DNA of 64,000 nucleotides from Escherichia coli (GCF_050920415.1 NZ_CP169309.1); one strand, 5' to 3'; counted from the first letter of the stretch, positions 12,461-58,544 are shown. Notes: generated by a model from the letters alone, not told the origin. Translations and numbers: made by a program.

Positions 12461-12523
12461 TTCTCATACGTTCATGCACCACTGGAAGATCTGAATGTCT
12501 TCCAGCACACATCGCCTGAAAGA

Positions 12524-12574
12524 CTAGTCAGGATGATGGTGATGATGGTGGTGTTTAAATTGAACGCGTGTCAT
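12524..12574 (-). CDS. hisL: his operon leader peptide (7 consecutive His codons)
   Basis: Minus strand ATGACACGCGTTCAATTTAAACACCACCATCATCACCATCATCCTGACTAG read directly = MTRVQFKHHHHHHHPD. Confidence 0.92.
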   Translation of the reverse strand: MTRVQFKHHHHHHHPD

Positions 12575-12797
12575 AAAAGTCTCTGTGAATGTTTATTCAA
12601 CTGATGTCTTTTAACCTAAACCACTTTCACGTTAGAAAGCAAGGGCTTTTTTATATATTTTATGGCGATGGATTTGTTTAATGAATGAGCGGGGAAAGGA
12701 GAGGGCCAGGAGTGGCTACGTTAAAAAAGTAATCGTGAAAATATGTCTTTAAAACCCTCAAGAACATTGTGTTCTGTAACTAAAGTGGGCTTGGTTC

Positions 12798-12897
12798 CTG
12801 CCGGATGCGGCGTGAATGCCTTATCTGGTCTACAAATGTTGCCTAAATTCAATATATTGATGTTTTTGTAGGACTGATAAGCGGAGCGCATCAGGCA
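12798..12897. repeat. BIME-like pair of REP elements
   Basis: ccggatgcggcgtgaatgccttatctggtctac and gactgataagcggagcgcatcaggc, REP-type palindromes. Confidence 0.5.
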
Positions 12898-13000
12898 ATT
12901 GTATATTTGCTAACAGTTTCGATTTCATTCATAGAATGAATTGTCAGTTTTGATACGCTAGCGTAGCCTTATAGATCTAAGGTGTATCAGGAGATAACGG

Positions 13001-13825: not shown

Positions 13826-13870
13826 ACGATCACGCCAGCAGGACGCCGCATGCACTGCAAGGGGGCGTGT

Positions 13871-14800: not shown

Positions 14801-15066
14801 AGAAAAATTATTATGACAAGCCTCTCATTCTCTTGTCATTTCCCCCCCATTTAGGCACAATGCGCCGCTGTCAAAAAATGACTAAAAACCGACGTTTAAT
14901 TAGCGTCGGTTATTTTTTGCTTCAAACCAATCATTCATACCAAGAGGCCGGGCTTCGTACCGGATAGATATTTACTAAAAATCGACAGTTGTTGTCGCTG
15001 AGGAATCCAAAAAAATGGGGCAATTTTTTGCTTACGCGACGGTTATTACCGTAAAGGAGAATGACC

Positions 15067-16425: not shown

Positions 16426-16463
16426 TCTTACAAGCCGGATGACATAATCATCCGGTAAATCTC

Positions 16464-16496
16464 AAAAAGCCGGAGTTTGTCGCTCCGGCTTTTTTG
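16464..16496. terminator. Bidirectional terminator between convergent plaP and sbcB
   Basis: aaaaagccggag...ctccggctttttt. Confidence 0.75.
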
Positions 16497-16498
16497 TT

Positions 16499-17926: not shown

Positions 17927-18134
17927 TAGGTTAAATCCGTTATTTCTGCTGTCTGCCAGAGTATCAAATATCACCGTGCTAATCAGCTTTAGCGCGACAA
18001 TTTGGCAGCGAGTGGCAACAGATCATGTCAGATAAAAATGAGATAGTAGTCACATTTTCTTGCACTTTATTCCAGCCAGTTCATAAGTATTTCCGTAAAA
18101 AGAACAGCTATTTGAAACACCTGAGGGTTTGCTG

Positions 18135-19301
18135 TTGAAACGCCGTCTTATTATTGCTGCTTCTTTGTTCGTTTTTAACTTATCGTCTGGTTTTGCGGCG
18201 GAAAACATTCCTTTTTCACCTCAGCCTCCAGAGATTCATGCCGGGTCCTGGGTACTGATGGATTACACCACCGGTCAGATTCTCACCGCGGGTAATGAGC
18301 ATCAACAGCGCAATCCCGCCAGCCTGACAAAGCTGATGACGGGCTATGTTGTGGATCGCGCTATCGATAGTCATCGCATTACGCCAGATGATATTGTCAC
18401 CGTGGGGCGCGATGCGTGGGCGAAAGATAATCCGGTGTTTGTCGGTTCTTCACTGATGTTTCTGAAAGAGGGCGATCGCGTATCGGTACGTGATTTAAGC
18501 CGTGGTTTAATTGTGGATTCCGGAAATGACGCTTGTGTTGCACTGGCTGACTATATTGCCGGTGGGCAACGGCAGTTTGTTGAAATGATGAACAACTATG
18601 CCGAGAAGCTGCATCTCAAGGATACGCATTTTGAAACAGTGCATGGTCTGGATGCACCTGGCCAGCATAGCTCGGCTTATGATTTAGCTGTGCTTTCTCG
18701 CGCTATCATCCACGGCGAGCCCGAGTTTTATCATATGTACAGTGAGAAAAGCCTCACCTGGAACGGTATTACCCAGCAAAACCGTAACGGGTTATTGTGG
18801 GATAAAACCATGAATGTTGACGGCCTGAAAACGGGTCATACTTCTGGTGCCGGGTTTAATCTCATTGCTTCGGCTGTGGATGGGCAGCGTCGTCTCATTG
18901 CAGTGGTAATGGGGGCTGACAGTGCAAAAGGTCGTGAGGAAGAGGCAAGAAAATTACTGCGTTGGGGGCAACAAAACTTTACTACAGTGAAAATTTTGCA
19001 CCGTGGGAAAAAGGTCGGGACGGAACGTATCTGGTATGGCGATAAAGAAACTATCGCCCTGGGAACGGAACAAGAGTTCTGGATGGTGCTACCTAAAGCC
19101 GAAATTCCACATATCAAAGCCAAATATACCCTTGATGGTAAAGAACTCACTGCGCCAATTAGCGCCCATCAGCGGGTAGGGGAAATTGAACTTTACGACC
19201 GTGATAAACAGGTGGCGCACTGGCCGCTGGTTACCCTGGAATCTGTCGGGGAAGGCAGCATGTTTTCCCGCCTGAGTGATTATTTCCACCATAAGGCCTG
19301 A
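18135..19301 (+). CDS. dacD: D-alanyl-D-alanine carboxypeptidase (PBP6b)
   Basis: ORF from 18129; likely TTG start giving MKRRLIIAASLF, 388 aa; SxxK motif region present. Confidence 0.9.
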   Translation: MKRRLIIAASLFVFNLSSGFAAENIPFSPQPPEIHAGSWVLMDYTTGQILTAGNEHQQRNPASLTKLMTGYVVDRAIDSHRITPDDIVTVGRDAWAKDNPVFVGSSLMFLKEGDRVSVRDLSRGLIVDSGNDACVALADYIAGGQRQFVEMMNNYAEKLHLKDTHFETVHGLDAPGQHSSAYDLAVLSRAIIHGEPEFYHMYSEKSLTWNGITQQNRNGLLWDKTMNVDGLKTGHTSGAGFNLIASAVDGQRRLIAVVMGADSAKGREEEARKLLRWGQQNFTTVKILHRGKKVGTERIWYGDKETIALGTEQEFWMVLPKAEIPHIKAKYTLDGKELTAPISAHQRVGEIELYDRDKQVAHWPLVTLESVGEGSMFSRLSDYFHHKA

Positions 19302-21321: not shown

Positions 21322-21651
21322 ATGGAAACTACCAAGCCTTCATTCCAGGATGTACTGGAATTTGTTCGTCTGTTCCGTCGTAAGAACAAACTGCAACGTG
21401 AAATTCAGGACGTTGAGAAAAAGATCCGTGACAACCAGAAGCGCGTCCTGCTGCTGGACAACCTGAGTGATTACATCAAGCCGGGGATGAGCGTTGAAGC
21501 AATCCAGGGCATCATCGCCAGCATGAAAGGTGACTATGAAGATCGCGTTGACGATTACATCATCAAAAATGCCGAGCTCTCCAAAGAACGCCGCGATATC
21601 TCCAAAAAGCTGAAAGCTATGGGCGAAATGAAAAACGGCGAAGCGAAGTAA
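21322..21651 (+). CDS. yeeX: DUF496-family protein YeeX
   Basis: ORF 21256..21651; start at [20 protein letters not shown], 109 aa. Confidence 0.88.
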
Positions 21652-21667
21652 TTCCTGTTTTATTCAA

Positions 21668-21700
21668 TGAGGGTTGCCCGGTAACCCTCATTGCTCATTG
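21668..21700 (+). terminator. Terminator after yeeX
   Basis: tgagggttgcccggtaaccctca hairpin followed by T-rich tract. Confidence 0.65.
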
Positions 21701-21751
21701 TTTCTTTTCTGTGTATCACCGTCATCATTCCCATCTGATAACCTATTGAAA

Positions 21752-21934
21752 TTAGCGATAGCCTTCTTCTGTATGCAGCAAGGCAAAAAGTTCTGCAACT
21801 CCATTGTTATTAACCGCACTGGTTACTAACACATTGTGCGCTCCAGCTTCCCGTAACCAACTTTTCACCAAAGATATTTGTTCCATACTGGCTAAATCTG
21901 CTTTGGTGACTACTCCAATGACCGGGCGATTCAT
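21752..21934 (-). pseudogene. yoeF: Remnant of a PduV/EutP-like small GTPase gene (yoeF-like fragment)
   Basis: 60 aa ORF ...[25 protein letters not shown]... resembles the C-terminus of PduV/EutP-family proteins; no full-length partner frame. Confidence 0.45.
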
Positions 21935-22519
21935 TGACGAGGTAAAGCCTGGCGAAAAAGGTGACCACGGTGCGTCCGCATTAAGTACCAGCGCGATAAT
22001 GTCTGCTTCGCAGGCACTGACTAACAGAGCACTGTAGAGGCTGCGGTTTTATCGGTGAGGACTGGCAGCAAGATTTCCAGCCTTTTGACGGTGGGCCTGT
22101 GCAATCGTTATCAGATTCGTATAGCGATTATTCAGTGCTGCTATTGATAGCAGCTGAAAGCGAGATATCCGTACCAGAATAGCTCCCTCATTCTGAGGGA
22201 ACGACGGTAATTTTGATTGCAGAACACAATGCCCGTTTGCTGAATGGTCCGGCTGGTGGGGCTGTAGCATTAATCCATTATTTGAATGAAATCAGTCATG
22301 CCAGAGAAACCGCTGTCAATGACGCATTTTGTCGGACGTTAACACGAGGAAGTCTGGCTATTCCGCAATGCCATCTTCTTTCGTAATGGATTGAGAATGC
22401 TGGATTTTTAATTATATTACGCGCAGTATTAATCGCGTAAATGTTTTGCGGTCAGCAACAGTGGGGGAACCATTGTTCTGTTCAATGAATACCATCATAC
22501 AATTGAATCAGGAGTCGGT

Positions 22520-23065
22520 ATGATGATTTTGGTGACAGGTGGAGCACGGAGCGGGAAGAGTCGCCACGCAGAGGCGCTTATTGGGGACTCTTCACAGGTT
22601 CTGTATATCGCCACCTCGCAAATCCTTGATGATGAGATGGCTGCACGGATAGAACATCATCGGCAAGGCCGCCCGGCTCACTGGCGCACAGTGGAGCGCT
22701 GGCAACATCTTGATGAATTAATTCATGCAGACATTAACCCGAATGAGGCTGTGTTGCTGGAATGCGTTACCACAATGGTGACTAATCTGTTGTTTGATTA
22801 TGGCGGCGATAAAGACCCTGATGAATGGGATTATCAGGCGATGGAACAGGCGATTAATGCTGAGATTCAGTCGTTGATTGCTGCCTGCCAACGTTGCCCC
22901 GCAAAGGTTGTATTAGTGACTAACGAAGTGGGAATGGGGATTGTGCCGGAGAGTCGTCTGGCACGACATTTTCGTGATATTGCCGGGCGGGTAAATCAGC
23001 AGTTGGCCGCTGCGGCAAATGAAGTATGGCTGGTGGTTTCGGGTATTGGAGTAAAAATCAAATGA
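22520..23065 (+). CDS. cobU: Adenosylcobinamide kinase / adenosylcobinamide-phosphate guanylyltransferase
   Basis: 181 aa, [19 protein letters not shown]-loop. Confidence 0.95.
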
Positions 23066-37706: not shown

Positions 37707-45695
<7,989 letters not shown>

Positions 45696-46107
45696 GCTTA
45701 CCTTCCCTGAACGAGCTAACATAAATGCGCCCTTTCTAGCACAGCGAAAAAATATAAATCCTGATAGCAATATGATTGAAAATTAATAACTTTTCGTTAA
45801 GCAGTTTTGGGTGTGAGTTGCAAGAGGGGAGACTACTGAATAACTCAGTTTAATAATTGAGGGGGCAATGGTGACGAATATAGGGACGGAGTAGAGAAGA
45901 TAGTGCTGAACTCTTTGCCAGCAGAAGGTTATGTGGCACAAAAATAACCGTAACTTCTCACTCTCGACAGGAAAGCTGTAGACGGCGTCCATAACAAAAC
46001 GCCCCCAACCATAAGGTCGAGGGCGCTTAAGATGACAAACCCGCTCTTCGTTAAAGAATCAATGCTTAATGTAGATGAGTTGCATTGCACGATAAAAGCG
46101 AATTTTT

Positions 46108-46129
46108 AGAATTTGGCTCCTCTGACTGG
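46108..46129. repeat. 21-bp direct repeat of the 3' end of tRNA-Asn (distal att site of the islet)
   Basis: gaatttggctcctctgactgg is identical to 54382..54402 (3' end of asnT plus 5 bp). Confidence 0.85.
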
Positions 46130-46462
46130 GATCGCCGTAGCCATTAACAGGCTGATTGGTAAAGCTAAAAAAATTTGAGTTTGTCAAGACCACCAGAATG
46201 ACCACCATTTTAAAGTAACATTTGAAGTTTACTCAGTAGCACCTTTAGCTTCACTTACAATCAATTAACCTGTGAAGATAGCTGTACCTACAATCGCAAT
46301 AACTTATTACAGATCCGACGACAAACATCACCTGTTATCCACTCTGGCACTACCGTGCATGATAATCAATAAGTCGGGTGCTGGCTTGCAAGGCAATTGC
46401 GTTGTAATGTACCAAATCCCAGTTCGCCTTCACTCTAAAATGCCCCGACGTTTCGAACGCGT

Positions 46463-47341
46463 TTACGGTAAATAATGCGTGACAATCTGCAGGAACTCAT
46501 CCCGCATCTGGTTGTCGATTTTCGGATTCCATGCCACACCAATGTTCCATATGATCTGCTTTCCCCACAGAGTAATCAGCTTGACTCCTACAGGTAAAAA
46601 ATTCTCGACGCTGGCGGGTAGCAGCGCGAGACCATTCCCTCCGGCTATCAATGCTAGCAGGGAATGAATATCATTCGTCGCAGAGATTGGCTCAATGATG
46701 AGTTCATTATCCCGCAGGAACGCAGTCGTTTGCTCCGCCAGACAAGGGCTGACCGCTGGATCCATGCATAAAATCGGATAGATTGCCAGCGTACGCTGGA
46801 GATCGGTGGGATCAATATCGACGGCTACCGGGACAGCCAACACCAGATTTTCTTTATTTATTAAGCGAGAGGCCAATAATTCTGTTACCGGCATACGAAC
46901 AAAACCAGCATGCAGTTCACCTTCCATCAACATCCTAGCTTGTACGCTGGAGGCAATTTGGCTGATAACAACGTCGCAGTCGGGAAATTTCTGGCGAAAA
47001 GTGTTAATCCAAACTGGTGTGCTTTTAAACGAAGATATACCAAATCCGAGCACCAGTTTACCCGTACTCCCCTTTTGGATTTCTCTGGCGTAGGTTAAAA
47101 AATCGTGGTGGGATTTCAGCAACTCATAAGCTTTAGCAAACAACTGCCTGCCAACCATCGTCAACACTGCCCCGTGGCGACCACGCAGGAAAAGCTGCCC
47201 TCCGGTCTTCTGTTCGAGCATCTTGATCTGCTTTGAAAGCGCAGGTTGTGTCAGAAATAAAGCTTCTGCAGCTTTATTGTAGTTTCCCTTTTCCGCCAGT
47301 GTCACAAATGCACGCAGCAGCCTTATATCTATTCCTGACAT
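46463..47341 (-). CDS. LysR-family transcriptional regulator (islet-encoded, divergent from the operon)
   Basis: 292 aa, N-terminal HTH IRLLRAFVTLAEKGNYNKAAEALFLTQPALSKQIKMLE. Confidence 0.85.
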   Translation of the reverse strand: MSGIDIRLLRAFVTLAEKGNYNKAAEALFLTQPALSKQIKMLEQKTGGQLFLRGRHGAVLTMVGRQLFAKAYELLKSHHDFLTYAREIQKGSTGKLVLGFGISSFKSTPVWINTFRQKFPDCDVVISQIASSVQARMLMEGELHAGFVRMPVTELLASRLINKENLVLAVPVAVDIDPTDLQRTLAIYPILCMDPAVSPCLAEQTTAFLRDNELIIEPISATNDIHSLLALIAGGNGLALLPASVENFLPVGVKLITLWGKQIIWNIGVAWNPKIDNQMRDEFLQIVTHYLP

Positions 47342-47567
47342 TTATTGAATCCTGAAAAATTGGAATTATACAAATACTCGCAACAGATGACATGATGCGT
47401 AAAATGATTTACGCCGAGATCCCCTTGGTTTGTCAAACTCAGAAACGCCATACCTGCTGCTCTTGGTTCTATTTAACACTCACTAATGCGCAGGTTATTT
47501 ATAAAAATTGACCTCATAAATCATTCAAAAACATTAATTATATAAATACAATAAGGATTAAATATTT
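47342..47567. promoter_or_regulatory. Divergent promoter/operator region between the LysR gene and the isochorismatase-hypEF operon
   Basis: 226-bp AT-rich intergenic region between divergent starts; classic LysR arrangement; no specific site mapped. Confidence 0.5.
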
Positions 47568-48167
47568 ATGCCAAATATTGCCGTTCTCACTAATGACCTG
47601 CAGTATGAGTTTACCTACAAAATAACACGCTCTCCAGAAATTCTGGCGCAAAAACTCGTCCAGTTTAATCAGTTTCTCGATGGCATTCGCGCTCTGGATC
47701 AATCCATTATCCACCTGCAACTTATCAACGATCCTAATGACCCGGCGGTACAAAAGCGCTATCGCAACCGCGAAGCGGGCATTCCTGCACTAGCTGGTCG
47801 CCCGGAAAACCAGATTATCGATAAAGTATACCGCCCCACAGATCTGGTTGTAGTCAAGGGCAGAGACAGCGGTTTTTTTAATAACGATCTCGACGAAATC
47901 CTCCAGCAACTCGGGGTAAAAACCGTAATCGTTACCGGGTTGCAAACTCATGTTTGCGTGCAGACCACTGCAGCGGATGCCTTCTTTCGCGGCTATAACG
48001 TCTGGGTACCGGGCGACTGCGTGTTCGCTCCTTCGTCCGAAGATACAGAGCGTGCACTCGAGTGGCTTGCCAGCTATTGCGCAACTGTAGCACCTTCTGC
48101 GGAAATTTTATCAATATTGCAAAAACAGAACGATCTGCCTGAGCGCGGCGAAAGGGAAGCATCATGA
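47568..48167 (+). CDS. Isochorismatase-family cysteine hydrolase
   Basis: 199 aa; ...VTGLQTHVCVQTTAADAF... matches the catalytic Cys region of the isochorismatase/CSHase/nicotinamidase family. Confidence 0.75.
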   Translation: MPNIAVLTNDLQYEFTYKITRSPEILAQKLVQFNQFLDGIRALDQSIIHLQLINDPNDPAVQKRYRNREAGIPALAGRPENQIIDKVYRPTDLVVVKGRDSGFFNNDLDEILQQLGVKTVIVTGLQTHVCVQTTAADAFFRGYNVWVPGDCVFAPSSEDTERALEWLASYCATVAPSAEILSILQKQNDLPERGEREAS

Positions 48168-49195
48168 GCTTAACCCAGACGCTAAATCATGAAGAGGTCG
48201 TTGTACTGGATCATGGCACCGGGGCGAAATTAAGCCGCGAGTTGGTTGAAAAAATTGCTAGCATTCTCGGTGACACCTATCTGGGCGTGATGGAAGATAG
48301 CGCGGTGCTGGGGTTATCCACCAGGCGAATTGCCTTCACCACCGACTCCTTTGTTGCCACGCCGCTGATTTTCGGCAACGGTGATATTGGCAAAATCGCC
48401 GTATGCGGCACCGTTAACGATCTCGCTGTCAGTGGGGCTCGTCCCCTTTACATCACACTCAGTCTTATTATTGAGGAAGGTATGCCGATGGCTGATCTGG
48501 TCAGAATCATCGAGTCCGTACGTGAAACGGCTCGTGAGGCAGAGGTCAAGATTGTCGCTGGTGATACCAAGGTCGTAGGTAAAGGTGAAGCAGATCGGCT
48601 GTTTATCAATACTGCTGGCATCGGCGTGTTTGAACATCCGCCAGTCTCAGTTAAGAACGTGCGTCCGGGGCAGAAAATAATCCTGAGCGGATATATCGGC
48701 AATCACTCGATTCACCTGCTGTCGATGCGGGAAGGATTGGGGTTCGAGCGAAATATTCTTAGTGATTGCGCACCGCTGAACCACATTATTGACAAACTTA
48801 TCAGCAACATCCCTGAAGGCAAAATAGCGTCAATGCGAGACGTTACGCGCGGTGGGCTGTCCGCTGTTTTACACGAACATGCGCGCGCAACAAATTATCA
48901 GATTCATTTCGACCAGCCATCTTTGCCCATACAGCCGGAAACCGCCATGGCAGCTAATATGCTGGGTGTTGACGTCATTAATCTCGCTAATGAAGGTTGT
49001 TTGTGCCTGTTTGTTGAACCTGAGTATGCTCAGAAGGTACTACATTTGCTGCAGGAGCATCCTGTCGGCAAGCACGCGACAATTATCGGCGAGATCACCG
49101 CTGTCTCGGGTACTGAAGTCTATATGATTGAAGCTGATGGAACACACACAGAAGTCGAGGAATTATATGGCGCAGAATTACCCAGACTCTGTTGA
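48164..49195 (+). CDS. HypE-like protein (PurM superfamily; carbamoyl dehydratase / thiocyanate-forming type) with C-terminal Cys
   Basis: 343 aa; ...DTKVV.KG.ADRLFINTAG.G... and C-terminus ...ELPRLC resembling HypE PRIC; ATGA overlap with upstream gene. Confidence 0.8.
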   Translation: MSLTQTLNHEEVVVLDHGTGAKLSRELVEKIASILGDTYLGVMEDSAVLGLSTRRIAFTTDSFVATPLIFGNGDIGKIAVCGTVNDLAVSGARPLYITLSLIIEEGMPMADLVRIIESVRETAREAEVKIVAGDTKVVGKGEADRLFINTAGIGVFEHPPVSVKNVRPGQKIILSGYIGNHSIHLLSMREGLGFERNILSDCAPLNHIIDKLISNIPEGKIASMRDVTRGGLSAVLHEHARATNYQIHFDQPSLPIQPETAMAANMLGVDVINLANEGCLCLFVEPEYAQKVLHLLQEHPVGKHATIIGEITAVSGTEVYMIEADGTHTEVEELYGAELPRLC

Positions 49196-51545
49196 GCTTC
49201 ACGAGACGCCGGAAACCCGGCGTTACCGCATCTGTGGGGTCGTTCAGGGCGTTGGATTTCGTCCCTTTGTTCACCGACTGGCCCGCACCTATGGTGCCAC
49301 CGGCTGGGTGTTAAACGATTCAGAAGGCGTGTTGCTTGAGCTGCAGGCATCCGGCACGGTTATTGCCAGAATCATGGACAAACTGGTGACCGAGGCACCA
49401 CCACTGGCAAAAATCATCAGTACGCAGGAAGTTAGCCCAACGGATACCAGAGCGCACTATGAAACGTTCAGCATCCGTAAAAGCCGCGATCATACCAGCA
49501 TGGACACGATTATCCCGCCAGATACCAACGTCTGCAGCGATTGCCTGCGCGAGATAAGCGATCCTGATAATCATCGTTATCGTTACGCTTTCACCAATTG
49601 CACCAATTGTGGGCCGCGCTATTCCATTATTCTTGGTATGCCTTACGATCGTGCCCAGAGCACTATGCGTAAATTCCCTTTATGTCCAACCTGTGAGCGT
49701 GAATACAACGATATTGAGGATCGACGCTATCATGCCCAGCCCAATGCCTGCCCAGTTTGCGGCCCACAGTTGCAACTTACCGATCGACAGGGCACATCCG
49801 TTCACACAGATGATATTGTCAAATTTGCCATTACGAAACTAAAAGAAGGCGGAATTCTTGCAATAAAGAGCCTTGGTGGCTTTCATCTCGTGGCCGATGC
49901 TTGCAATGAGAATGCTGTCAATGAACTTCGGCAACGCAAGCGAAGAGACGCCAAACCTTTTGCAGTGATGGTCGCGGATGTGGAAAGCGCGTCGCGTATT
50001 GCTTTCATCCCCCCCTGTAATCACAAATTGCTGGAAAGCCCGCAGCGTCCCATTGTCTTGTTGTATAAGCGCAACGTCCTGCTGGCGAGTACCGTTGCGC
50101 CACATAATCCGAACATCGGTGTAATGCTGCCTTCAACGCCGCTTCAGCATTTATTGCTGGAAGACCCGTCTCTGCCGATCCTGATTATGACCAGCGGTAA
50201 TATTTCCGGTCATCCGATCGTCTTTGACAACGACATGGCAATTAAGCAACTCGGGAAAATCGCGGATTACTTCATTCTGAATAATCGCGATATTCATACG
50301 CGTGTTGACGATTCGGTGGTCCGCACGGTGTTTCTCAACGACGCCATTACCTCGCAGCTATCGTTTTTGCGCCGCTCCCGCGGTTACGCGCCATACCCTA
50401 TTCATCTACCTTACGCAGTGGATTCCGTTATCGCGCTCGGGGCGGAGCTAAAAAACACGATCAGCATCGGCAAAGGAAAACAGGTTTTTCTGAGCCAGCA
50501 TATTGGCGATCTTAAGAATAACGTGACTTTTAAATCACATATCGAATGTATTGATCATCTTCAAAACCTGCTGAACGTGAAGGCAAATGTCGTGGCCTGC
50601 GATTTGCATCCCTCTTTCCGCTCTACCCGGCATGCGCTGGAGAATTTAGAGCATCAGGTTGTTCAGGTTCAACACCATCACGCGCATATGGCATCCTGCA
50701 TGGCGGAAAATGGCCTGTCAGGTACTACTCTAGGCGTAATTTTTGACGGTACAGGATATGGCACCGACGGCACCATTTGGGGCGGTGAGTTTCTCGTTGG
50801 TGATTTCGAAAAATTCGAGCGTGCAGGATGCTTGCGTTCAATGACCCTGCCCGGAGGCGATCGGGCAGTTAAAGAGCCGCTGCGCGTCGGCATCTCCTTA
50901 CTGGTGGAAACCTTCGGCGAAGATATCAGTACGCTCGCAGTACCAGGCTTGCAGGCGCTCCAGCCTCAGCAGCGCGATATATTCAGTAAAATGGCGACCA
51001 GAAAAATCAACACCACCACGACCAGCAGCATGGGCAGACTATTTGACGGCATCGCCGCGCTGATGGGCGTTTGCACTCAGGTGGAGTACGAAGCCCAGGC
51101 GGCCATTGAACTGGAAGCGCTGCTGCAGTGTAAACTTCATATGACGGCTCCGTTCAGCTACATCATTGCCGATGTCGAGAATAAGCTCGAGGTGGATTAT
51201 CGCCCGATGATAAGGGAACTGGTGCAATGCTTCAGCCAGCCCGGTTTTGATATGGCCGAACTAAGTCGGCGCTTTCACTCTACCATCGTCGACATGATTT
51301 GCGAGGTCTGTAAACGTCTGGTGGCACGCTCAGGCACGCAACAAATTGTCCTGAGCGGCGGCGTGTTCTGCAATGAATTCATCCTCGTTAATTCTCTTAA
51401 CAGTCTGGAGTCTTGTGGATTCCGGCCTTACAGCCATCAGTTAGTTCCGACTAACGATGGTGGTATTTCATTGGGGCAAGTGGTTATTGCTACCGCATAC
51501 ACTCGCGCAACGCGCAATAAAAATCTGGAGAGAGAAAATGCATAG
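49167..51545 (+). CDS. HypF-like carbamoyltransferase (acylphosphatase, two CxxC-N18-CxxC Zn fingers, YrdC-like and Kae1-like domains)
   Basis: ORF 49128..51545; start at ATG 49167 with GAGG RBS; VQGVGFRPFV acylphosphatase motif; CSDC...CTNCGPR and CPTC...CPVCGP fingers; HHHAH in the C-terminal domain. Confidence 0.82.
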   Translation: MAQNYPDSVELHETPETRRYRICGVVQGVGFRPFVHRLARTYGATGWVLNDSEGVLLELQASGTVIARIMDKLVTEAPPLAKIISTQEVSPTDTRAHYETFSIRKSRDHTSMDTIIPPDTNVCSDCLREISDPDNHRYRYAFTNCTNCGPRYSIILGMPYDRAQSTMRKFPLCPTCEREYNDIEDRRYHAQPNACPVCGPQLQLTDRQGTSVHTDDIVKFAITKLKEGGILAIKSLGGFHLVADACNENAVNELRQRKRRDAKPFAVMVADVESASRIAFIPPCNHKLLESPQRPIVLLYKRNVLLASTVAPHNPNIGVMLPSTPLQHLLLEDPSLPILIMTSGNISGHPIVFDNDMAIKQLGKIADYFILNNRDIHTRVDDSVVRTVFLNDAITSQLSFLRRSRGYAPYPIHLPYAVDSVIALGAELKNTISIGKGKQVFLSQHIGDLKNNVTFKSHIECIDHLQNLLNVKANVVACDLHPSFRSTRHALENLEHQVVQVQHHHAHMASCMAENGLSGTTLGVIFDGTGYGTDGTIWGGEFLVGDFEKFERAGCLRSMTLPGGDRAVKEPLRVGISLLVETFGEDISTLAVPGLQALQPQQRDIFSKMATRKINTTTTSSMGRLFDGIAALMGVCTQVEYEAQAAIELEALLQCKLHMTAPFSYIIADVENKLEVDYRPMIRELVQCFSQPGFDMAELSRRFHSTIVDMICEVCKRLVARSGTQQIVLSGGVFCNEFILVNSLNSLESCGFRPYSHQLVPTNDGGISLGQVVIATAYTRATRNKNLERENA

Positions 51546-52278
51546 TTCTGCGAACCGTATTGCCGCTGTTTTATTCGATATGGATGGTGTCCTTATTGAT
51601 TCCAATGCGGTGATTGAGCGCGGCTGGGCTGAAGGCGCACAGATGTTTGGCAAGACGCTAACGGAAGAGGATATCGTCAGGCATATTCACGGACAGCCCG
51701 GCCCGCATACCATTCGCGCCCTGTTCAGCGACCTTTCCCTGGAAGATCAAAAGAAGGTCCAGTCACATATCATCCACGTTGAAAATACCGCTGATTACGA
51801 CCCGATCCCTGGAGTTAGCGAACTTATCCAGGCGTTGCATAAGGCTGGCATCAGTGTGGGGATTGTCACTAGCGGCTGGCGGTCGAAAATCGATCGTATT
51901 ATGGAGATGCTGCAAATCACGCCCTGTATTTCAGTGATTGTCGAACGTGATGATGTCGTGCGCGGCAAGCCTTATCCCGATCCTTATCTGCTTGCCGCAG
52001 AGCGGTTTCATCTTGCACCGTCCAGAACACTGGTCTTTGAGGATTCAAGAAGCGGCGTAACATCTGCTGTTACAGCAGGCGCAATTTGTGTTGGCATCGG
52101 TACAGACAGTCTGAAAGAGTGCGGTGCCGTGCTTGCAATTACAGATTTTCGTAATGTGAAAATCACCTCACAGACAGGCGAAAAAGTAGTGATTGCCTTT
52201 ACTCCAGAGCACCAGATGGAGATGGAAACTCAGAGCTCTCGTAAGAAAACATCCTGTACCACAAGAGAAGAGTGCTAA
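51538..52278 (+). CDS. HAD-superfamily hydrolase (subfamily IA, phosphatase/beta-phosphoglucomutase-like)
   Basis: ORF 51457..52278; start at MHSSANRIAAVLFDMDGVLIDS (DxDG motif), overlapping the hypF-like stop. Confidence 0.75.
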   Translation: MHSSANRIAAVLFDMDGVLIDSNAVIERGWAEGAQMFGKTLTEEDIVRHIHGQPGPHTIRALFSDLSLEDQKKVQSHIIHVENTADYDPIPGVSELIQALHKAGISVGIVTSGWRSKIDRIMEMLQITPCISVIVERDDVVRGKPYPDPYLLAAERFHLAPSRTLVFEDSRSGVTSAVTAGAICVGIGTDSLKECGAVLAITDFRNVKITSQTGEKVVIAFTPEHQMEMETQSSRKKTSCTTREEC

Positions 52279-53471
52279 TGAATATCACACAGAAGGGACG
52301 CTGGGCTGTCACTATGCTATTTTTTATCAATGGCTTCGTCACCGGAGGTTGGGCTGTGCAAATTGCACAGCTTGTACCACGCTTTGGCGTGACCGACAAA
52401 GTGATCGGCCATTTAATTCTGATCTTCGGATTCGGTGCACTAACCATGATGCCCATATCAGGCATTCTGATGGAAAAGATGGGGACACAAATCGTAACGC
52501 GTATTTTTGCCCTTGCAGCCTCCCTGGCATTAATTCCGGTTGGTTTAGCCACCACCCCATTAGTGTTGATGCCAGCGTTATTTGTTCTTGGTGCGATGAT
52601 TGGTGCCATGAATGTAGCGATGAACTCGAATGCCGTGGCGGTGGAGAGATCACTCTCACAAGCGATTTTATCCTCCTGCCATTGCTTCTGGAGTATCGGC
52701 CTATTTGCGGCGGGCTCGATAGGCGGCCATCTTGTTGAACAATTTGGCTTTTTGACGCATATCTTTTTGATTAGTGCCGTGGCCTTAATACTGACGCTGA
52801 TTATCGCTCCGGCCATTTTTAAAGACATACAGACGGTTAAATCCACCAGCAGACAGACCACCCGGTTGCCTCGTTCTCCGGCGATTTATCTGATTGGATT
52901 GATGGCTTTTCTGGCCATGATCCCTGAATGCGCTGTTGTTGACTGGTCGTCACGCTATTTGATTAAAAATCTCAATGCAAAAACAGAAATCGCCAGCCTT
53001 GCCTTCGCCTGCTTTGCTGTAGCAATGGCCTTGTTTCGCTTTATGGGTGACGTGATCCGCAACCGCTTCGGCGCAATATTAATTATACGAATCTCCAGCT
53101 TACTGGCAGGCGCTAGCCTATTGTTGAGCGCACTGGCACACAATCCCTGGCAGGCGATCTGCGCATTTACCTTAGCGGGAATCGGCATCGCCAACCTTGT
53201 GCCCATTGTCTTTTCCGCAGCGGGAAATCAGCCCAATATTTCCACCAACACAGGAATGAGCATTGCCACAACCATTGGGTATTTAGGCACGCTAATGGCC
53301 CCTGCGCCTATTGGCTATATTGCGGAAATAACCGGTTTTCCAGTGGTTTATTGCGGACTAGCTTTCATGTCGGGAATTATCTTTTTGCTGGCACCACTGG
53401 TTCGGGGGGCAGAAATCTCTGTACAGCGGCAGCGAGCCTCAAACAAACACCAGAATACCGGAGCGTTGTAA
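52272..53471 (+). CDS. MFS transporter
   Basis: 399 aa, about 12 predicted TM segments; start overlaps the HAD stop (GTG 52272 or ATG 52278). Confidence 0.75.
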   Translation: MLMNITQKGRWAVTMLFFINGFVTGGWAVQIAQLVPRFGVTDKVIGHLILIFGFGALTMMPISGILMEKMGTQIVTRIFALAASLALIPVGLATTPLVLMPALFVLGAMIGAMNVAMNSNAVAVERSLSQAILSSCHCFWSIGLFAAGSIGGHLVEQFGFLTHIFLISAVALILTLIIAPAIFKDIQTVKSTSRQTTRLPRSPAIYLIGLMAFLAMIPECAVVDWSSRYLIKNLNAKTEIASLAFACFAVAMALFRFMGDVIRNRFGAILIIRISSLLAGASLLLSALAHNPWQAICAFTLAGIGIANLVPIVFSAAGNQPNISTNTGMSIATTIGYLGTLMAPAPIGYIAEITGFPVVYCGLAFMSGIIFLLAPLVRGAEISVQRQRASNKHQNTGAL

Positions 53472-54027
53472 TTTCTGCCTGGCAAATACTGTGAAACGCT
53501 GACGCAAATTTTACTTTCCTGCGTATTGTCATCACAGGCCGTACAGACAGTGCGCGGTCTGTTGGCGGATCTGCCTGGTATTTTGCCGATGAACTGAGGG
53601 CGTCCTGCGGGATACGTATCGCCAGGGGCGTGAAACTAATTGATGAGGTGGCGGCATGATGCCGGCGGACTAGCATATCTGCCTTTCGCCGCCTGACATG
53701 TCCTTTGGGGCCGCTGTCAGTTCAGAGTAAAGGAGAAAAAGATCGATACCGAGGGGGGGCACGACGCCCCGGAGACACCCCTGTTTCGTCAGACAGTCTG
53801 TACCGCGTACAGCCTGAAACTCCCTAAACCTCAACAAACTGCCACTTCGACGTGAAGGTATCGTTCTGGCGCAGCCAAAAAGCACATGCCGGAGACTGTT
53901 TTTTTGGTTGTAGAGGGTAGTCATGAGCAAATTAAGTAGTGAAATGAAGGCCCTGACGAAGAAAGCAGGCGGCAGCTTCAAAACGGTAAATGACCGTATC
54001 CATATTACAAAACGGTTCAGTGAGCAT

Positions 54028-54225
54028 TTACGCGAACTGAACATCCAGATCCGGCGGGTATGCGCCAAGACTGACTCTGGATTCTTTTCCGTTGAAACGA
54101 TATTTGAGATACCAGATGCGTGAACCGCCCGGATTGACGAGCAGATACAGACCGTGAGAGTCGGAGAGTTTTACCGGACGGGAAGAGGTTTTTAACTTGC
54201 GGATTTTAGAATCGTTTAAAGACAT
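54028..54225 (-). pseudogene. P4-type tyrosine integrase, N-terminal remnant only
   Basis: MSLNDSKIRKLKTSSRPVKLSDSHGLYLLVNPGGSRIWYLKYRFNGKESRVSLGAYP matches the N-terminal arm-binding region of tRNA-associated island integrases, then terminates prematurely. Confidence 0.65.
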
Positions 54226-54386
54226 TTGGGGGTCACTCCAGAATCGAACCAAACTGACCCCAGATCTGACCACCAAATTATCCCGATGCGGAGAGAAAAC
54301 CAGATACGCACCGGGGAGGATTTTCACGCTAACTTACTGAACCGTAAACAAATAGAGATGTACAGATAAGCATGAAAACTTGAATT

Positions 54387-54462
54387 TGGCTCCTCTGACT
54401 GGACTCGAACCAGTGACATACGGATTAACAGTCCGCCGTTCTACCGACTGAACTACAGAGGA
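54387..54462 (-). tRNA. asnT: tRNA-Asn (GUU)
   Basis: 76 nt, identical tRNA-Asn sequence; sits between mtfA and the islet/yeeJ. Confidence 0.93.
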
Positions 54463-54562
54463 ATCGTGTGAACAGGGCGCATGTTACTTAGCGGTACCTT
54501 GTCTGTCAACACTAAATTTCATAAGTCATTTCAATTGGTTAATTAATCTGCAAAGTTGTTAA

Positions 54563-55360
54563 TTAATGAACATTCGTCGCCGAAAACGAGTCTGTATCAT
54601 TAGCGTGATGCAGTCTCTGCAAAGGATCTTGTTGATAAAATTGGCAGAAACGTTGCCACAATGAAGGGAAACGAGGAGCAAAAAGCTCAGGGGCGCTAAA
54701 GAAATATTCAGAAAGTACGGCAAAACACTCAGCAGGATCACTGGCAGCATAAGCATCGATGCTCGCCGCATTCTCACCGACTAATTCGATCTCTTCCTGA
54801 ATGTTGTTCATTGCGGCATGAAGATCGTGTTCCCAGCCAGCAACCTCACGCAACGGAATAAAGGGAACTCCGCTGGCGCGATCGCCGTTACGGGTGTCCA
54901 GCTTATGAGCGACTTCATGAATAATCAGGTTAAAACCAGAAGCATCAAACGAATCTTGTATATCCAACCAGTTCAAAACGATTGGCCCTTGCTGCCAGCT
55001 CTGACCTGACTGAACAATACGTTGGTTATGCACTAAACCGATATCGTCTTCCCACTCATCATCGACTACAAATGGCGCAGGGTAAATTAAGACTTCATGA
55101 AAACCATCCAGCCATTCTAGCCCTAACTCCAGAACGGGCAGGCAAAATAGAAGGGCTATCCGGCAGCTTCTTAATGAATCCAGCTCAAAGCCCTGTAAGG
55201 GAACAAGCCGTTTTTGCTGTAAAAAACGTTCGGCAAGAGTGACTAATTTGCTTTGTTCCTGTTCTGTCAGGCACGTTAAAAGGGGAATCGATAGTGCTTC
55301 CTGCCAGGGAAGGGCAGTTTGATGTGCTGATTCTTGTACTTTCCAGGGCCACTTAATCAT
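54563..55360 (-). CDS. mtfA: Mlc titration factor A (zinc-dependent peptidase-like)
   Basis: ORF 54563..55399; start at [14 protein letters not shown], 265 aa; HEVAH motif. Confidence 0.9.
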
Positions 55361-57001: not shown

Positions 57002-57652
57002 TCAATGAGACATCATCTCCTCGACCACTTCTTCGCTACTCAACTGATAGGGATAATACGTTGGCCAGTTTTCCATTTCATTCAATAAAGATTGCTGTGA
57101 ATCATTACCCATAAAAATGTGAAAATGAGATGATTTTCGTGGTGCAATTATATGATCGCTAAATTGTATATATTTAGGGGCTTTGCTTTCAGGATCTTTA
57201 CATTCGAATAAGTAACGAACGCCTTTCTTGCCTGATTTATAGGTGAGTATTTTGTAGCCATCGTAATCATATTTACAGGATGTAGTTTCGTTATTTATAT
57301 GGAATTCAATAATGCCGTCCTCAATACCAATCATTTCGATATCTGTCGAGTAGCCTTTCTGATAATAATCTTTAACTTCTGCGAATGTTTTGGTTTTATC
57401 TGCATTCGCTTTCTTTCGAAAGACGGGGTCAAGCTTGCCATTTTGCAGTAAGGGATAAACGGATTGCCAGACTCCATCCCAGTCACTGAGCGTTCGGTTT
57501 TGTACATTGGCATCATCAAAAACACCGTTAGCCGCTTTTTGTTCGACCTCTGTTAAGGGTTTGCCGTGTGAGTGATGACCATGCGAAAAGGCAGGAGCGC
57601 TAACAATAAAGACACCTAAAGCAATAGCCAGTTTATTAAGACGAATCGCCAA
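57002..57652 (-). CDS. zinT: Periplasmic zinc/cadmium-binding protein ZinT
   Basis: 216 aa, signal peptide then HGHHSHG His-rich motif. Confidence 0.93.
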
Positions 57653-57844
57653 AACAGTTTCCTCCAGAGTTATTGTACATGACGTGTTATGTTATATTGT
57701 AACATATGACGAAATGCAATAACTCTTAGGAAACAAGAGCATAGTTTTCTCAGGTGTATTTACCTATCTTATTGAAATGAAATAAATTATGTCGATGATT
57801 TGAGGTTGATGACAAACGAAACATAACTTGATGCGATCTGTGTG

Positions 57845-57878
57845 GGCCGGATAAGGCGCTCACACCGCATCCGGCAGG
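57845..57878. repeat. REP element
   Basis: gggccggataaggcgctcacaccgcatccggcag. Confidence 0.6.
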
Positions 57879-57908
57879 GATAACGCGTACTTTGTCGGCA
57901 ATATGAAG

Positions 57909-58544
57909 TTATAGAGATGATTTGTTGTGAACCTGCTTGCGTAATCGGTTGAAAAGGGAAAGTAGCTTTTTATACCGTAAGGCTAAAAGCAGTACAGCCA
58001 GCCCAGCGTAGATGAGTGGCTGCGGTGAAATAATCTTCACTGACCACAGATAATGTATTGGAGCCAGGATCGCGACAAGATAGACGAAGTTATGCAACTG
58101 TTGCCAGTGTTTGCCGAGTTTTCGCTGCATCGCCTGGGTTGAAGTGAACGCTAAAGCAAGCAAAATTACCCAACTAATAATACCTAACGTTAAATAAGGT
58201 CGGGTGATTAACTCCTTGCCTAATAACGCCAGATTATTCACGCCCAGCTCCAGTAATGCGTAACTGGTTAAATGCAGTGTCGCCCAGGCAAAGCACCATA
58301 AGCCTAACAGGCGTCGAGTCCGCATCAATAACGGCTGTTTTGCGTAACGTGCCAGAGGTGTAATTAACAAGGTCGCCAGCAAAAATTTCAGTGCAGTGCG
58401 TCCGGTAAAATGCTGAATATCTTTCACCGGATCGGCTCCTAGTCCACCGTGATTGATCGCCCAGGCAAGCCAGAGCAACGGCAACAATCCGGCAAGATGC
58501 AGGCAAAGTTTTAGCCATGTCACCTGTTTTGCTGTCAGACGCAT
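57909..58544 (-). CDS. msrQ: Methionine sulfoxide reductase heme-binding membrane subunit
   Basis: 211 aa, [26 protein letters not shown]. Confidence 0.92.

Follow-up and report, generated by a model that had tools for sequence, protein, structure and literature searches.

Escherichia coli already possesses hypF and hypE. What, then, would a further pair of such genes do when it is encoded between a cysteine hydrolase gene and genes of a HAD phosphatase and an MFS transporter, as in the 64,000-nt stretch of E. coli DNA analysed here (GCF_050920415.1 NZ_CP169309.1, hereafter the window)? The answer we prefer, to which we give about an even chance of being right, is a LysR-controlled, horizontally acquired small-molecule pathway around a hydrogenase-independent HypF/HypE pair, with the hydrolase passing a C–N unit to an amine.

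The operon and its tRNA-Asn islet

Five ORFs are present on the + strand (47568-53471) at the coordinates given in the initial annotation, and these coordinates equal the RefSeq/PGAP gene calls in a 100%-identical E. coli record (Table 1). All four junctions of these same-strand genes overlap. The hydrolase and hypE genes share an ATGA at 48164-48167 (read from sequence), the hypF ATG (49167) lies 29 nt within hypE and is preceded by GAGGAA 7 nt upstream, the HAD ATG (51538) has an 8-nt overlap with the hypF TAG and GGAGAGAG upstream, and the MFS ATG (52278) has one base in common with the HAD TAA (TAATG). The junction coordinates of the initial annotation match the sequence, and its reading of the five genes as a translationally coupled unit is borne out by the overlapping stop and start codons. 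Promoters or terminators between the genes would have spoken against this unit; consensus scanning of 46300-54500 gave no excess of either, with 6 promoter-like sites against an expected 11.1 ± 3.4 and 7 terminator-like sites against an expected 7.9 ± 2.7. No gene junction is marked by either. A single five-gene operon is predicted.

Table 1. Features of the islet, in window coordinates
Feature	Position	Strand	Remarks
Distal att-like direct repeat	46109..46134		tRNA-Asn 3'-end copy; left islet end
LysR-family transcriptional regulator gene	46463..47341	-	292 aa; divergent; presumed operon regulator
Divergent control region	47342..47567	+	AT-rich; sigma-70-like site and short inverted repeats; consensus matches, putative
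Cysteine hydrolase gene	47568-48167	+	199 aa; isochorismatase fold; signature partner of cassette HypE/HypF
HypE paralogue gene	48164-49195	+	343 aa; PurM-type ATP-dependent dehydratase; C-terminus PRLC (Cys343)
HypF paralogue gene	49167-51545	+	792 aa; carbamoyltransferase; acylphosphatase, 2 zinc fingers, YrdC-like, Kae1-like (HHxAH)
HAD-IA phosphatase gene	51538-52278	+	246 aa; DMDG motif; beta-phosphoglucomutase / sugar-phosphatase type
MFS transporter gene	52278-53471	+	397 aa; presumed product exporter
Tyrosine integrase, two fragments	53923..54225		N-terminal and Arm DNA-binding parts; both pseudogenes
tRNA-Asn (asnT)	54387..54462	-	integration site; 3' end bears proximal att repeat 54382-54407

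Directly upstream of the first gene, the control region contains a putative sigma-70-like promoter (47524-47552) and a putative inverted repeat, ATTTAT-N13-ATAAAT (47497-47521), both as consensus matches. The divergent LysR gene also adjoins related loci in Citrobacter, Buttiauxella, Escherichia sp., Lonsdalea, Burkholderia and Trinickia. Moreover, other genera show the gene order again, and hypE and hypF keep their overlap of 29 nt from Enterobacterales to Burkholderiales and Sorangium, so that the arrangement exceeds chance.

The operon stands on a rare islet at tRNA-Asn, a location absent from the initial annotation. The two att-like repeats agree in 24 of their 26 positions, including all of the first 21, and these 21-nt exact repeats of the tRNA-Asn 3' end lie 8,273 nt apart, giving an islet of 8.27 kb (∼8.3 kb). 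In genomes without the islet, yeeJ homology extends to about position 46130 and tRNA-Asn comes directly after it, and other E. coli have intact integrases at the position corresponding to the two integrase fragments (placed here from the record's locus 17524-17826 with an offset of 36399). The islet is present in only 13-15 of the 5,426 complete genomes of E. coli. Insertion at a tRNA 3' end, a direct repeat, integrase remnants and absence from most strains together make it a tRNA-integrated genomic island, and horizontal acquisition with control by LysR is the best explanation of the operon. The defence protein models of PADLOC gave no match to the six proteins. Comparison of two E. coli variants gave a pN/pS of 0.22, and the window copy retains the consensus residues; we take this as a sign of selection and count it in favour of the pathway reading.

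Three enzymes conserved as a cassette

The HypE paralogue scored 415.2 bits against TIGR02124 (cut-off 251.6) over model positions 2-332 of 332, and can be aligned along its whole length with the HypE structures 3vti, 2i6r, 2z1t and 2z1e; PDB 2i6r and 3tsp are the E. coli HypE/HypF proteins. Its AIRS and AIRS_C domains place it in the PurM/AIR-synthase-related superfamily, and its tail, ELPRLC, keeps the C-terminal Cys with the Ile of PRIC replaced by Leu. The HypF paralogue scored 788.2 bits against TIGR00143 (cut-off 466.1) and likewise aligns from end to end, over 760 residues, with the HypF structures 3vth and 4g9i. Among homologues from the related loci, the HypE motifs GDTKV (68/69), RDxTRGG (69/69) and ANEG (68/69) are maintained, as are both zinc fingers and HHxAH of HypF (67/67) and its acylphosphatase motif (67-68/69). 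At the level of sequence, the island HypE and HypF are thereby shown to be full-length, with every catalytic signature kept. The kinship expressed by the earlier names ‘HypE-like’ and ‘HypF-like’ stands, but mere likeness does not, as these are complete proteins with scores well clear of the equivalog cut-offs. They have the same domain architectures and catalytic motifs as HypF/HypE of [NiFe]-hydrogenase maturation, and the same chemistry is expected of the cassette pair up to HypE-S-CN.

The first gene had been assigned to a family including RutB and N-carbamoyl amidases, and the structural comparison agrees. An AlphaFold2 model (pLDDT 91.3, pTM 0.89) has the isochorismatase fold, and its top Foldseek PDB matches are isochorismatase-like hydrolases (TM 0.71-0.80), the nearest being small ureido/amide hydrolases: RutB, biuret and triuret hydrolases and maleamate amidase. 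PF00857 is recorded on all homologues. In an alignment of 20 diverse sequences from Proteobacteria, Myxococcota and Actinobacteria, 61 of 199 positions are invariant, including the triad Asp10-Lys97-Cys130, which aligns with the D, K and C of 3eef and 3hb7, and two family-specific cysteines are present, Cys171 (invariant) and Cys151 (near-invariant). Membership of a named amidase equivalog (RutB, BiuH or N-carbamoylsarcosine amidase) was rejected, since scores fall far below every cut-off (RutB, 53.7 against 377.95 bits; BiuH, 50.7 against 370; PRK11440, 47.6 against 195). Isochorismatase-like amidohydrolases such as RutB, BiuH, TrtA, NicF/Ami and N-carbamoylsarcosine amidase have the fold and triad in common with the cassette hydrolase, and they act on small H2N-CO-X groups; in contrast, the cassette hydrolase is only 22-28% identical to such relatives, forms a tight separate family with the extra invariant Cys171, and is encoded with HypE and HypF. 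What it acts on may be a thiocarbamate or thiocyanate bound to a protein, instead of a free amide.

These relatives, which all act on ureido or carboxamide groups (an N-carbamoylsarcosine amidase relative among them), suggest that the system could perform N-carbamoylation only. The hydrolase would then be a trans-carbamoylase that runs the half-reaction of RutB or N-carbamoylsarcosine amidase backwards, moving the carbamoyl group of HypE-S-CONH2 to an amine to give a ureido product, or the cyano intermediate would be rehydrated to a urea. Carbamoyl is the first group delivered by the established HypF chemistry, and ureido amino acids occur in natural products. However, the ATP-dependent dehydratase core of HypE is fully conserved and would be unnecessary for simple carbamoyl transfer, a one-step job for ordinary carbamoyltransferases, and we consider this reading distinctly unlikely. 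TobZ/NovN/GdmN-type carbamoyltransferases decorate natural products from carbamoyl phosphate and ATP via carbamoyl-AMP; they carbamoylate small molecules directly with YrdC-like and Kae1-like domains, two of the four domains of HypF, and have no acylphosphatase or zinc-finger domains, HypE-type dehydratase or carrier cysteine, whereas in the cassette full HypF, HypE and hydrolase are maintained together.

The unit of conservation is a three-gene cassette, hydrolase-HypE-HypF. The three genes occur in the same order in 67 of 74 bacterial loci from at least five phyla and dozens of genera, HypE is directly downstream of the hydrolase in 69 of the 74, and the trio is maintained even where gene order differs; loci lacking the full trio are mostly contig ends or decayed copies. 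Thus the homologues, whose failure ever to co-occur elsewhere would have counted against the unit, are found together nearly without exception. The initial annotation had missed the cassette as the conserved unit.

The last two genes of the operon are less widely distributed. HAD orthologues come after HypF in every assessable locus of a proteobacterial clade and are specific to that clade. MFS orthologues are confined to Escherichia, Citrobacter, Lonsdalea and Gilliamella, and the transporters of other lineages are unrelated; the trio plus one transporter alone is the minimal unit in Nocardia and Rhizobium, and the transporter is missing from the sister operons of Buttiauxella and UBA7338. 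The HAD protein (motif LFDMDGV) belongs to the HAD-IA phosphatases (TIGR01509, 67.6 against a cut-off of 29.4); its best specific models, sugar phosphatase PRK11587 and the beta-PGM family, are below their cut-offs, and in the PDB it comes closest to the sugar phosphatase TM_1254. The MFS protein has an MFS_1 domain (PF07690, E = 3e-20, residues 14-342) and 12 predicted helices, and among profile models no specific transporter family reached its cut-off.

Hydrogenases and the surroundings of the cassette

Identity among cassette HypEs is 45-91% (median 59%) but only 37-47% to two canonical HypEs, and 68 of 69 cassette HypEs end in PRLC. Upon searching 1.84 billion representative proteins with HypE, the top matches were PRLC-ended, followed by a drop to PRIC proteins, and 128 of the best 150 representatives had the PRIC C-terminus; one PRLC representative adjoins an isochorismatase and one PRIC representative adjoins HypD. 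Signature positions of cassette HypEs are D16, G71-N72, H184, M262, C279 (in 95%) and E338. As judged from these alignments, cassette HypE is shown to be a separate subfamily.

In the window and in 13 annotated contexts, the cassette has no hypC, hypD, hypA, hypB or hydrogenase gene beside it, except in P. phymatum, where plasmid pBPHY02 carries a complete hup/hypABFCDE set with the cassette 12 kb away. This hup cluster has its own complete hypABFCDE, and the cassette is shown never to have HypC/HypD of its own. The two HypEs of pBPHY02 are 42% identical, and the cassette HypE is 63% identical to that of the E. coli cassette. In nodules of a P. phymatum nifA mutant, ectB, GNAT, cysteine hydrolase, hypE and hypF are all down by log2 5-8, and the homologous cassette genes are NifA-dependent as a block (PMC8305402). 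Because the cassette is co-regulated with the hydrogenase genes, these nodule data cannot part a cassette role from a hydrogenase role.

Genomic association does not mark HypE and HypF as hydrogenase-maturation partners, as hypC, hypD and hydrogenase genes are all missing from the islet and from the cassette contexts, nor is HypF dedicated to such maturation, as its gene always accompanies those of cassette HypE and the hydrolase. Compared with HypABCDEF, the cassette lacks the HypC/HypD scaffold, HypA/HypB and a hydrogenase, has the cysteine hydrolase as invariant third partner, bears PRLC instead of PRIC together with its own signature residues, and stands among NRPS, ATP-grasp, amino-sugar and transporter genes; canonical HypE adjoins HypD, and cassette HypE adjoins the hydrolase. 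That the pair provides spare or specialised maturation, giving cyanide ligands to an E. coli [NiFe]-hydrogenase, would fit the PGAP names hypE and hypF, the scores above both equivalog cut-offs, and the proximity and common NifA dependence of cassette and hup cluster in P. phymatum. The missing hyp and hydrogenase genes, the obligate hydrolase partner, the divergence of cassette HypE and the hypF and hypE already present in E. coli make it extremely unlikely.

The surroundings of the cassette are biosynthetic (amine supply, peptide or sugar biosynthesis), without hydrogenases. Flanking genes vary, and primary-amine suppliers recur: a DABA-type aminotransferase (21 loci), DegT aminotransferase, GlmS or GlmS-like SIS protein, and a PALP+OCD pair of SbnA/SbnB-like architecture. 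ATP-grasp ligases, NRPS modules, peptidases and exporters are also neighbours, with a nitrilase-superfamily gene within Burkholderia/Trinickia clusters and a GST within myxobacterial clusters. In Streptomyces, decRiPPter detected orphan hypE/hypF with an ATP-grasp ligase and without other hyp genes, and a novel function was suggested (PMC7794033). This locus is of the same kind as the Streptomyces members of the cassette family; the paper gives it one paragraph as a candidate RiPP cluster with no function assigned, and says nothing of a cysteine hydrolase as partner, of how widely the family is spread among phyla, of the HAD-bearing clade in Proteobacteria or of an islet in E. coli. No published characterisation of the cassette was found in the freely accessible literature.

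Such surroundings also bear on a catabolic or detoxifying role, in which MFS would import a carbamoylated, cyano or phosphorylated compound for degradation by the hydrolase and HAD. A LysR gene, a transporter and hydrolases on a small islet are a typical catabolic layout, and catabolic amidases exist within the hydrolase family. However, HypF/HypE consume ATP to build groups and have no known catabolic role, homologous cassettes stand amid NRPS, ATP-grasp ligase and exporter genes, and the Buttiauxella and UBA7338 operons have no transporter at all, leaving this role very improbable. From the ‘modification or detoxification pathway’ of the initial annotation we retain modification, of a biosynthetic small-molecule kind; nothing favours detoxification.

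A proposed pathway

In the pathway that we prefer, following the established HypF/HypE mechanism, HypF would convert carbamoyl phosphate via carbamoyl-AMP to an S-carbamoyl group on HypE Cys343, and we infer by analogy that cassette HypE uses ATP to dehydrate S-carbamoyl to S-cyano (thiocyanate). The cysteine hydrolase, through Cys130, would replace the HypCD scaffold, accept or process the activated one-carbon C–N unit and deliver it to a primary amine, yielding an N-cyano product or its carbamoyl or amidino derivative; this role in C–N transfer we purely infer, from gene context. The nearest structural relatives of the hydrolase are hydrolases, not transferases, which argues against a transferase role. 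In the E. coli clade the acceptor would probably be an amino-sugar phosphate such as glucosamine-6-phosphate, extrapolated from sister clusters since no gene for amine supply lies in the E. coli operon itself. HAD would then dephosphorylate the product and MFS, presumably, export it. A phosphorylated polar substrate, as suggested earlier for the last two genes, is plausible given the HAD orthologue that invariably comes after the trio in the proteobacterial clade, and the GlmS paralogue, GlmS-isomerase-like SIS protein and GT2 glycosyltransferase in sister clusters.

Strong conservation of the hydrolase beside variable neighbours would be better fitted by a common small substrate, or the HypE tail, than by lineage-specific acceptors, and hence the outcome of the trio may instead be a small molecule in free form. 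In that case the thiol of the hydrolase would attack HypE-S-CN and release cyanide or, with ammonia or water, cyanamide or cyanate; the extra conserved cysteines (hydrolase Cys171 and Cys151, HypE Cys279) would possibly assist, the neighbours would use the molecule or transporters export it, and in E. coli HAD and MFS would serve an accessory step. The trio with a transporter alone in Nocardia and Rhizobium, the conservation of the hydrolase across phyla despite differing flanks, and the nitrilase-superfamily and GST genes are consistent with such release. On the other hand, HCN requires no transporter, cyanide-resistance or rhodanese genes do not recur, no redox partner for disulfide recycling is conserved, and the recurrent amine-supply genes and the strictly conserved proteobacterial HAD would be left unexplained. 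We regard release of a free molecule as unlikely, though the strongest of the alternatives. With transfer to an amine as the preferred reading, the cassette points to an uncharacterised route for placing a cyano or carbamoyl group onto small molecules.

Operon and islet structure

The initial annotation proposed that the five genes at 47568-53471 form one translationally coupled operon. All four gene overlaps that it described are seen directly in the sequence: the cysteine hydrolase gene and hypE overlap by ATGA, hypE and hypF by 29 nt with a Shine–Dalgarno-like GAGGAA upstream of the hypF start, hypF and the HAD gene by 8 nt with GGAGAGAG upstream of the HAD start, and the HAD and MFS genes share TAATG. 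A consensus scan of 46300-54500 for promoters and terminators was compatible with this arrangement, as no site of either type marks a junction, and neither promoter-like sites (6 found, 11.1 ± 3.4 expected) nor terminator-like sites (7 found, 7.9 ± 2.7 expected) were enriched. The same scan placed one promoter-like site closely upstream of the first gene and no terminator-like site in the ~450 bp from the MFS stop to the integrase remnant (53472-53922), which also holds no credible ORF.

Genes of the operon and its regulator, as called in the annotation of the identical RefSeq record (strain MFDS1022581, 100% match over 46400-54600)
Feature	Coordinates	Strand
LysR regulator, divergent	46463-47341	-
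Cysteine hydrolase	47568-48167	+
HypE	48164-49195	+
HypF	49167-51545	+
HAD hydrolase	51538-52278	+
MFS transporter	52278-53471	+

The window is the E. coli chromosome region of asnT and mtfA, and it contains four tRNA-Asn genes, tRNA-Ser, mtfA, yodB, zinT and a yeeJ-type inverse-autotransporter ORF (37707-45770, minus strand; 2,687 aa counted from a TTG start), which the matching RefSeq record gives as a slightly shorter CDS of 7,989 nt named Ig-like domain protein. That record also carries an IS2 between zinT and msrQ (record positions 21343-22571), which is absent from the window (57652-57909); the window therefore derives from a sister strain.

The five-gene unit and LysR lie on a genomic islet bounded by direct repeats that copy the tRNA-Asn 3′ end (46109-46134 and 54382-54407), 8,273 nt apart; the two copies agree at 24 of 26 nt, including all of the first 21. 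Two integrase pseudogene fragments (53923-54225) adjoin the tRNA, and other strains have intact integrases at the same tRNA-Asn. In islet-free genomes, the arrangement of most E. coli, yeeJ homology stops near 46130 and tRNA-Asn follows directly; among 5,426 complete E. coli genomes, only 13-15 have the islet. An anti-phage defence system was considered and rejected, PADLOC giving no match. LysR and the five-gene unit are also present in Citrobacter freundii (82-kb) and Salmonella enterica (170-kb) records deposited as plasmids, with hydrolases 74-81% identical; the Citrobacter record may be a misassigned contig, because its neighbours nagZ, thiK, lpoB and ndh look chromosomal.

Two islet variants exist, with 99.9-100% and ~99.1% identity to the window. 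Due to saturation of synonymous sites (dS >2.7 or undefined), dN/dS against Citrobacter and Escherichia sp. was unusable, and the comparison was therefore made with the 99.1%-identical copy of E. coli R32_14_1F. The two variants differ by 14 non-synonymous and 20 synonymous changes (pN/pS 0.22), of which 6 and 0, respectively, fall in HypF and 8 and 20 in the five remaining genes (Fisher p = 0.002). The HypF changes, residues 158 and 228 among them, fall on the R32_14_1F lineage, the window copy being the consensus. Because G228D hits a glycine invariant in 63/63 HypFs of the conserved cassette described below, HypF of this lineage may be impaired.

A conserved cassette distinct from the hydrogenase genes

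HypF and HypE are textbook single-purpose enzymes that make the cyanide ligands of [NiFe]-hydrogenases. Both islet proteins are complete (HypE, 415 bits against a cut-off of 251.6; HypF, 788 against 466.1) and can be aligned over their full length to solved structures of HypE and HypF, among which Caldanaerobacter proteins, and not the E. coli housekeeping ones, are nearest. HypE ends in PRLC, and HypF retains the acylphosphatase motif, both zinc fingers, the YrdC part and the Kae1 HHxAH site. For the first gene, the isochorismatase-like assignment of the initial annotation is borne out by the predicted fold (AlphaFold2 pLDDT 91.3) and by an invariant triad, Asp10-Lys97-Cys130. Its nearest solved folds, at 22-28% identity, are maleamate amidase, RutB, biuret and triuret hydrolases and an N-carbamoylsarcosine amidase-related protein, and every score against the equivalog models of these enzymes was below cut-off. 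The HAD protein belongs to class IA, of sugar-phosphatase/beta-phosphoglucomutase type, and the transporter is a generic MFS_1 protein; a cynX-like cyanate transporter was rejected, as no cyanate-transporter model occurs among its profile matches.

The unit of conservation is a three-gene cassette, hydrolase-HypE-HypF. The hydrolase family comprises 530 proteins at E <= 1e-10; E. coli and Streptomyces members are still ~50% identical, and 61 of 199 positions are invariant in a sample across Proteobacteria, Myxococcota and Actinobacteria. A scan of 100,044 species, one genome each, returned 235 hydrolase relatives, and among the best 80 of these, 74 loci were bacterial with a hydrolase identity of at least 43%. 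HypE lies immediately 3′ of the hydrolase on the same strand in 69/74, and both HypE and HypF are present in 67/74, so homologues of the operon genes do co-occur in other genomes. The exceptions are contig ends, fragmented genes (Lonsdalea, one Streptomyces), a decayed Gilliamella copy and one Actinophytocola locus, whose sole HypF match is partial and lies ~9.5 kb upstream. In Gilliamella sp. WF3-4, HAD comes almost immediately after the hydrolase and only a 35-aa remnant of HypF is left, and in Lonsdalea britannica the HypE and HypF matches are fragmentary; in both the cassette appears decayed. Archaeal relatives (33-44% identity), which have no HypE or HypF nearby, were left out of the family. 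The 29-nt hypE/hypF overlap is kept in Enterobacterales, Burkholderiales, a deltaproteobacterial MAG and Sorangium. Moreover, the trio stays together when the order is altered, as HypF-hydrolase-HypE on a metagenome contig, as divergent halves in S. clavuligerus, and, in Rhizobium, with a DMT transporter separating hypE from hypF.

The cassette copies are different genes from those of the hydrogenase systems. Across phyla, HypEs of cassette type share 45-91% identity (median 59%), whereas they share only 37-47% with the two canonical, hydrogenase-maturation HypEs of our small HypE tree. In a HypE search of 1.84 billion cluster representatives, the best match scored 439 bits and the next full-length ones ~320 bits, all ending in PRLC; beyond these the scores were at most 289 bits, and 128 of the 150 listed carried the canonical PRIC tail. 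A PRLC representative (49% identical) lies in a DegT-HypF-isochorismatase-HypE locus, and a PRIC representative (45% identical) in HypF-HypD-HypE. Against 119 PRIC representatives, cassette-specific positions are D16, G71-N72 (canonical P-G), H184 (canonical A), M262, C279 (canonical K) and E338.

Paraburkholderia phymatum pBPHY02 is a natural control for the two kinds of HypE. This plasmid (record positions 3757-25618) has a complete hup + hypABFCDE cluster and, 12 kb away on the opposite strand, an ectB-GNAT-hydrolase-HypE-HypF cassette; its two HypEs are 42% identical to each other, and the cassette one is 63% identical to the islet HypE. In all other annotated cassette contexts examined, hypC, hypD and hydrogenase genes are absent. 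That the cassettes are spare hydrogenase maturation genes fits these contexts poorly, and we regard it as extremely improbable. The name 'hydrogenase expression/formation protein' given by current pipelines is probably wrong for cassette genes, and a simple diagnostic is the PRLC or PRIC tail together with a neighbouring hydrolase or HypD.

Neighbouring genes and expression

Clustering of neighbours at 60-odd loci gave at least six cluster types, none recognisable as a named cluster.

Genes accompanying the cassette in different taxa
Taxa	Neighbouring genes
Hafnia, Photobacterium, Psychromonas	AraC, ATP-grasp ligase, trio, DABA-type aminotransferase, EamA exporter
Streptomyces	One or two ATP-grasp ligases
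Streptomyces, one type	DABA aminotransferase, GNAT, weak Haem_oxygenas_2 protein, M20 peptidase, MFS, PLP decarboxylase
Streptomyces, alternative type	NRPS C + A-T pair, gamma-glutamyl-hydrolase-like amidotransferase
S. clavuligerus plasmid	Arginase-family protein, ATP-grasp, MFS
Amycolatopsis, Saccharothrix	DegT-type sugar aminotransferase
Nocardia	Regulator and SBF transporter only
Sorangium, Cystobacter	Large NRPS, GST, ABC exporter; Cystobacter has a PALP + OCD pair in addition
Enterobacterales, Burkholderiales, delta MAG, Alteromonadaceae	HypF immediately followed by an orthologous HAD (54-65% identical)

The common denominator of these flanks is a dedicated supply of a primary amine, together with enzymes or exporters for small polar products. 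Judged from its domains, the Cystobacter PALP + OCD pair would have the architecture of the SbnA/SbnB diaminopropionate synthase. The two Haem_oxygenas_2/DUF3865-type neighbours, one of 266 aa with a weak Pfam match (E = 1e-4) and one of 235 aa with no significant Pfam match, have no detectable mutual similarity. The Hafnia cluster is compact (7526-16460 on a 4.87-Mb metagenome-assembled contig) and seems to be a core feature of that genus, because its hydrolase sequence recurs in 997 blocks of the collection.

In the clade with the orthologous HAD gene, Buttiauxella and UBA7338 clusters end after HAD, and those of Burkholderia and Trinickia additionally encode a GlmS-isomerase-like SIS protein (292 bits against the GlmS model), an amidohydrolase, an MFS protein and a nitrilase-superfamily enzyme. 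In the shipworm-symbiont Alteromonadaceae bacterium 2753L.S.0a.02 (9001-18568), the trio and HAD are followed by a GT2 glycosyltransferase, an unrelated MFS protein and a full-length GlmS paralogue; of all clusters, this one most clearly suggests an amino-sugar phosphate as substrate, and the amine in the HAD clade is likely of that kind.

These contexts bear on two further explanations. The trio might generate free cyanide, cyanamide or cyanate, for which the extreme conservation of the hydrolase, minimal units of trio plus transporter and extra conserved cysteines can be cited; the amine-supply genes and HAD speak against this, and we consider it unlikely. Catabolism or detoxification, the latter one suggestion of the initial annotation, fits the gene contexts poorly and is very improbable.

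Expression data exist for the P. phymatum cassette, annotated as hydrogenase genes in a bean-nodule RNA-seq study (PMC8305402). In nodules of a nifA mutant, Bphy_7266 to Bphy_7272 (ectB, GNAT, a hypothetical gene, cysteine hydrolase, hypE and hypF) were down by log2 5.2 to 8.1, and 2,4-diaminobutanoate was also lower (PMC8305402). All these genes drop together, and the homologous cassette is therefore expressed as a block; because hup genes respond alike, these data cannot separate cassette and hydrogenase roles. Since cassettes seem to be core in Hafnia and also reside on symbiosis plasmids of nodulating Paraburkholderia, where they depend strongly on NifA in nodules, their product may be relevant to host association.

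A possible role in C1-N transfer

HypF and HypE convert carbamoyl phosphate via carbamoyl-AMP to an S-carbamoyl group on the C-terminal Cys of HypE, which is dehydrated to S-cyano at the expense of ATP. As all required residues are kept, the islet proteins very likely perform these steps. We suppose that the cysteine hydrolase acts as receiver in place of HypCD: Cys130 would attack the thiocyanate (or thiocarbamate) carbon, take up the C1-N unit and offer it to an amine, resulting in a cyanamide (or urea or guanidine), i.e. the first half-reaction of its amidase relatives, reversed. In E. coli the acceptor would likely be glucosamine-6-phosphate or a related amino-sugar phosphate; HAD would dephosphorylate the product, MFS export it and LysR control expression. 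That the trio performs hydrogenase-independent C1-N transfer to a small molecule we consider fairly probable, the chances of the explanation overall appear evenly balanced, and the full chain including the amino-sugar acceptor is put forward tentatively. Carbamoyl transfer only would be consistent with kinship to ureido hydrolases, yet it gives no reason for the conservation of the HypE dehydratase and seems distinctly unlikely.

A further reading, which we regard as rather doubtful, is that the trio is an unrecognised biological cyanation system, its isochorismatase-fold protein being a cyanotransferase and not a hydrolase. Carbamoyl phosphate and two ATP would then be spent on a protein-bound thiocyanate that acts as a 'CN+' donor to primary amines (amino sugars, 2,4-diaminobutyrate, 2,3-diaminopropionate, peptide amines), and cyclisation or amination of the resulting cyanamides could yield guanidines or amino-oxazolines; the compound secreted by a few E. 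coli strains would be an amino sugar modified in this way.

To our knowledge, protein-thiocyanate chemistry in small-molecule synthesis has no known product or mechanism. Full-text searches of the open-access literature revealed no study characterising HypE/HypF together with an isochorismatase partner; apart from the expression tables of PMC8305402, the only trace is a one-paragraph remark that Streptomyces has hypE/hypF orphans next to an ATP-grasp gene (PMC7794033). The Hyp system was reviewed in 2025 (PMC12134894), and that review mentions neither natural products, secondary metabolism nor isochorismatase; its passages on paralogues concern HypA and HypC only. The parts come from known families, while their partnership and role appear uncharacterised. 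If our explanation is true, a widespread subfamily has swapped the HypCD iron scaffold for a cysteine hydrolase within biosynthetic clusters, and thiocyanate chemistry would have been put to use in small-molecule synthesis. Among the versions of this system the E. coli islet is the smallest: it comprises a regulator, a transporter and four enzymes (the trio and a phosphatase), and because this version sits in a genetically easy host, the question is directly testable.
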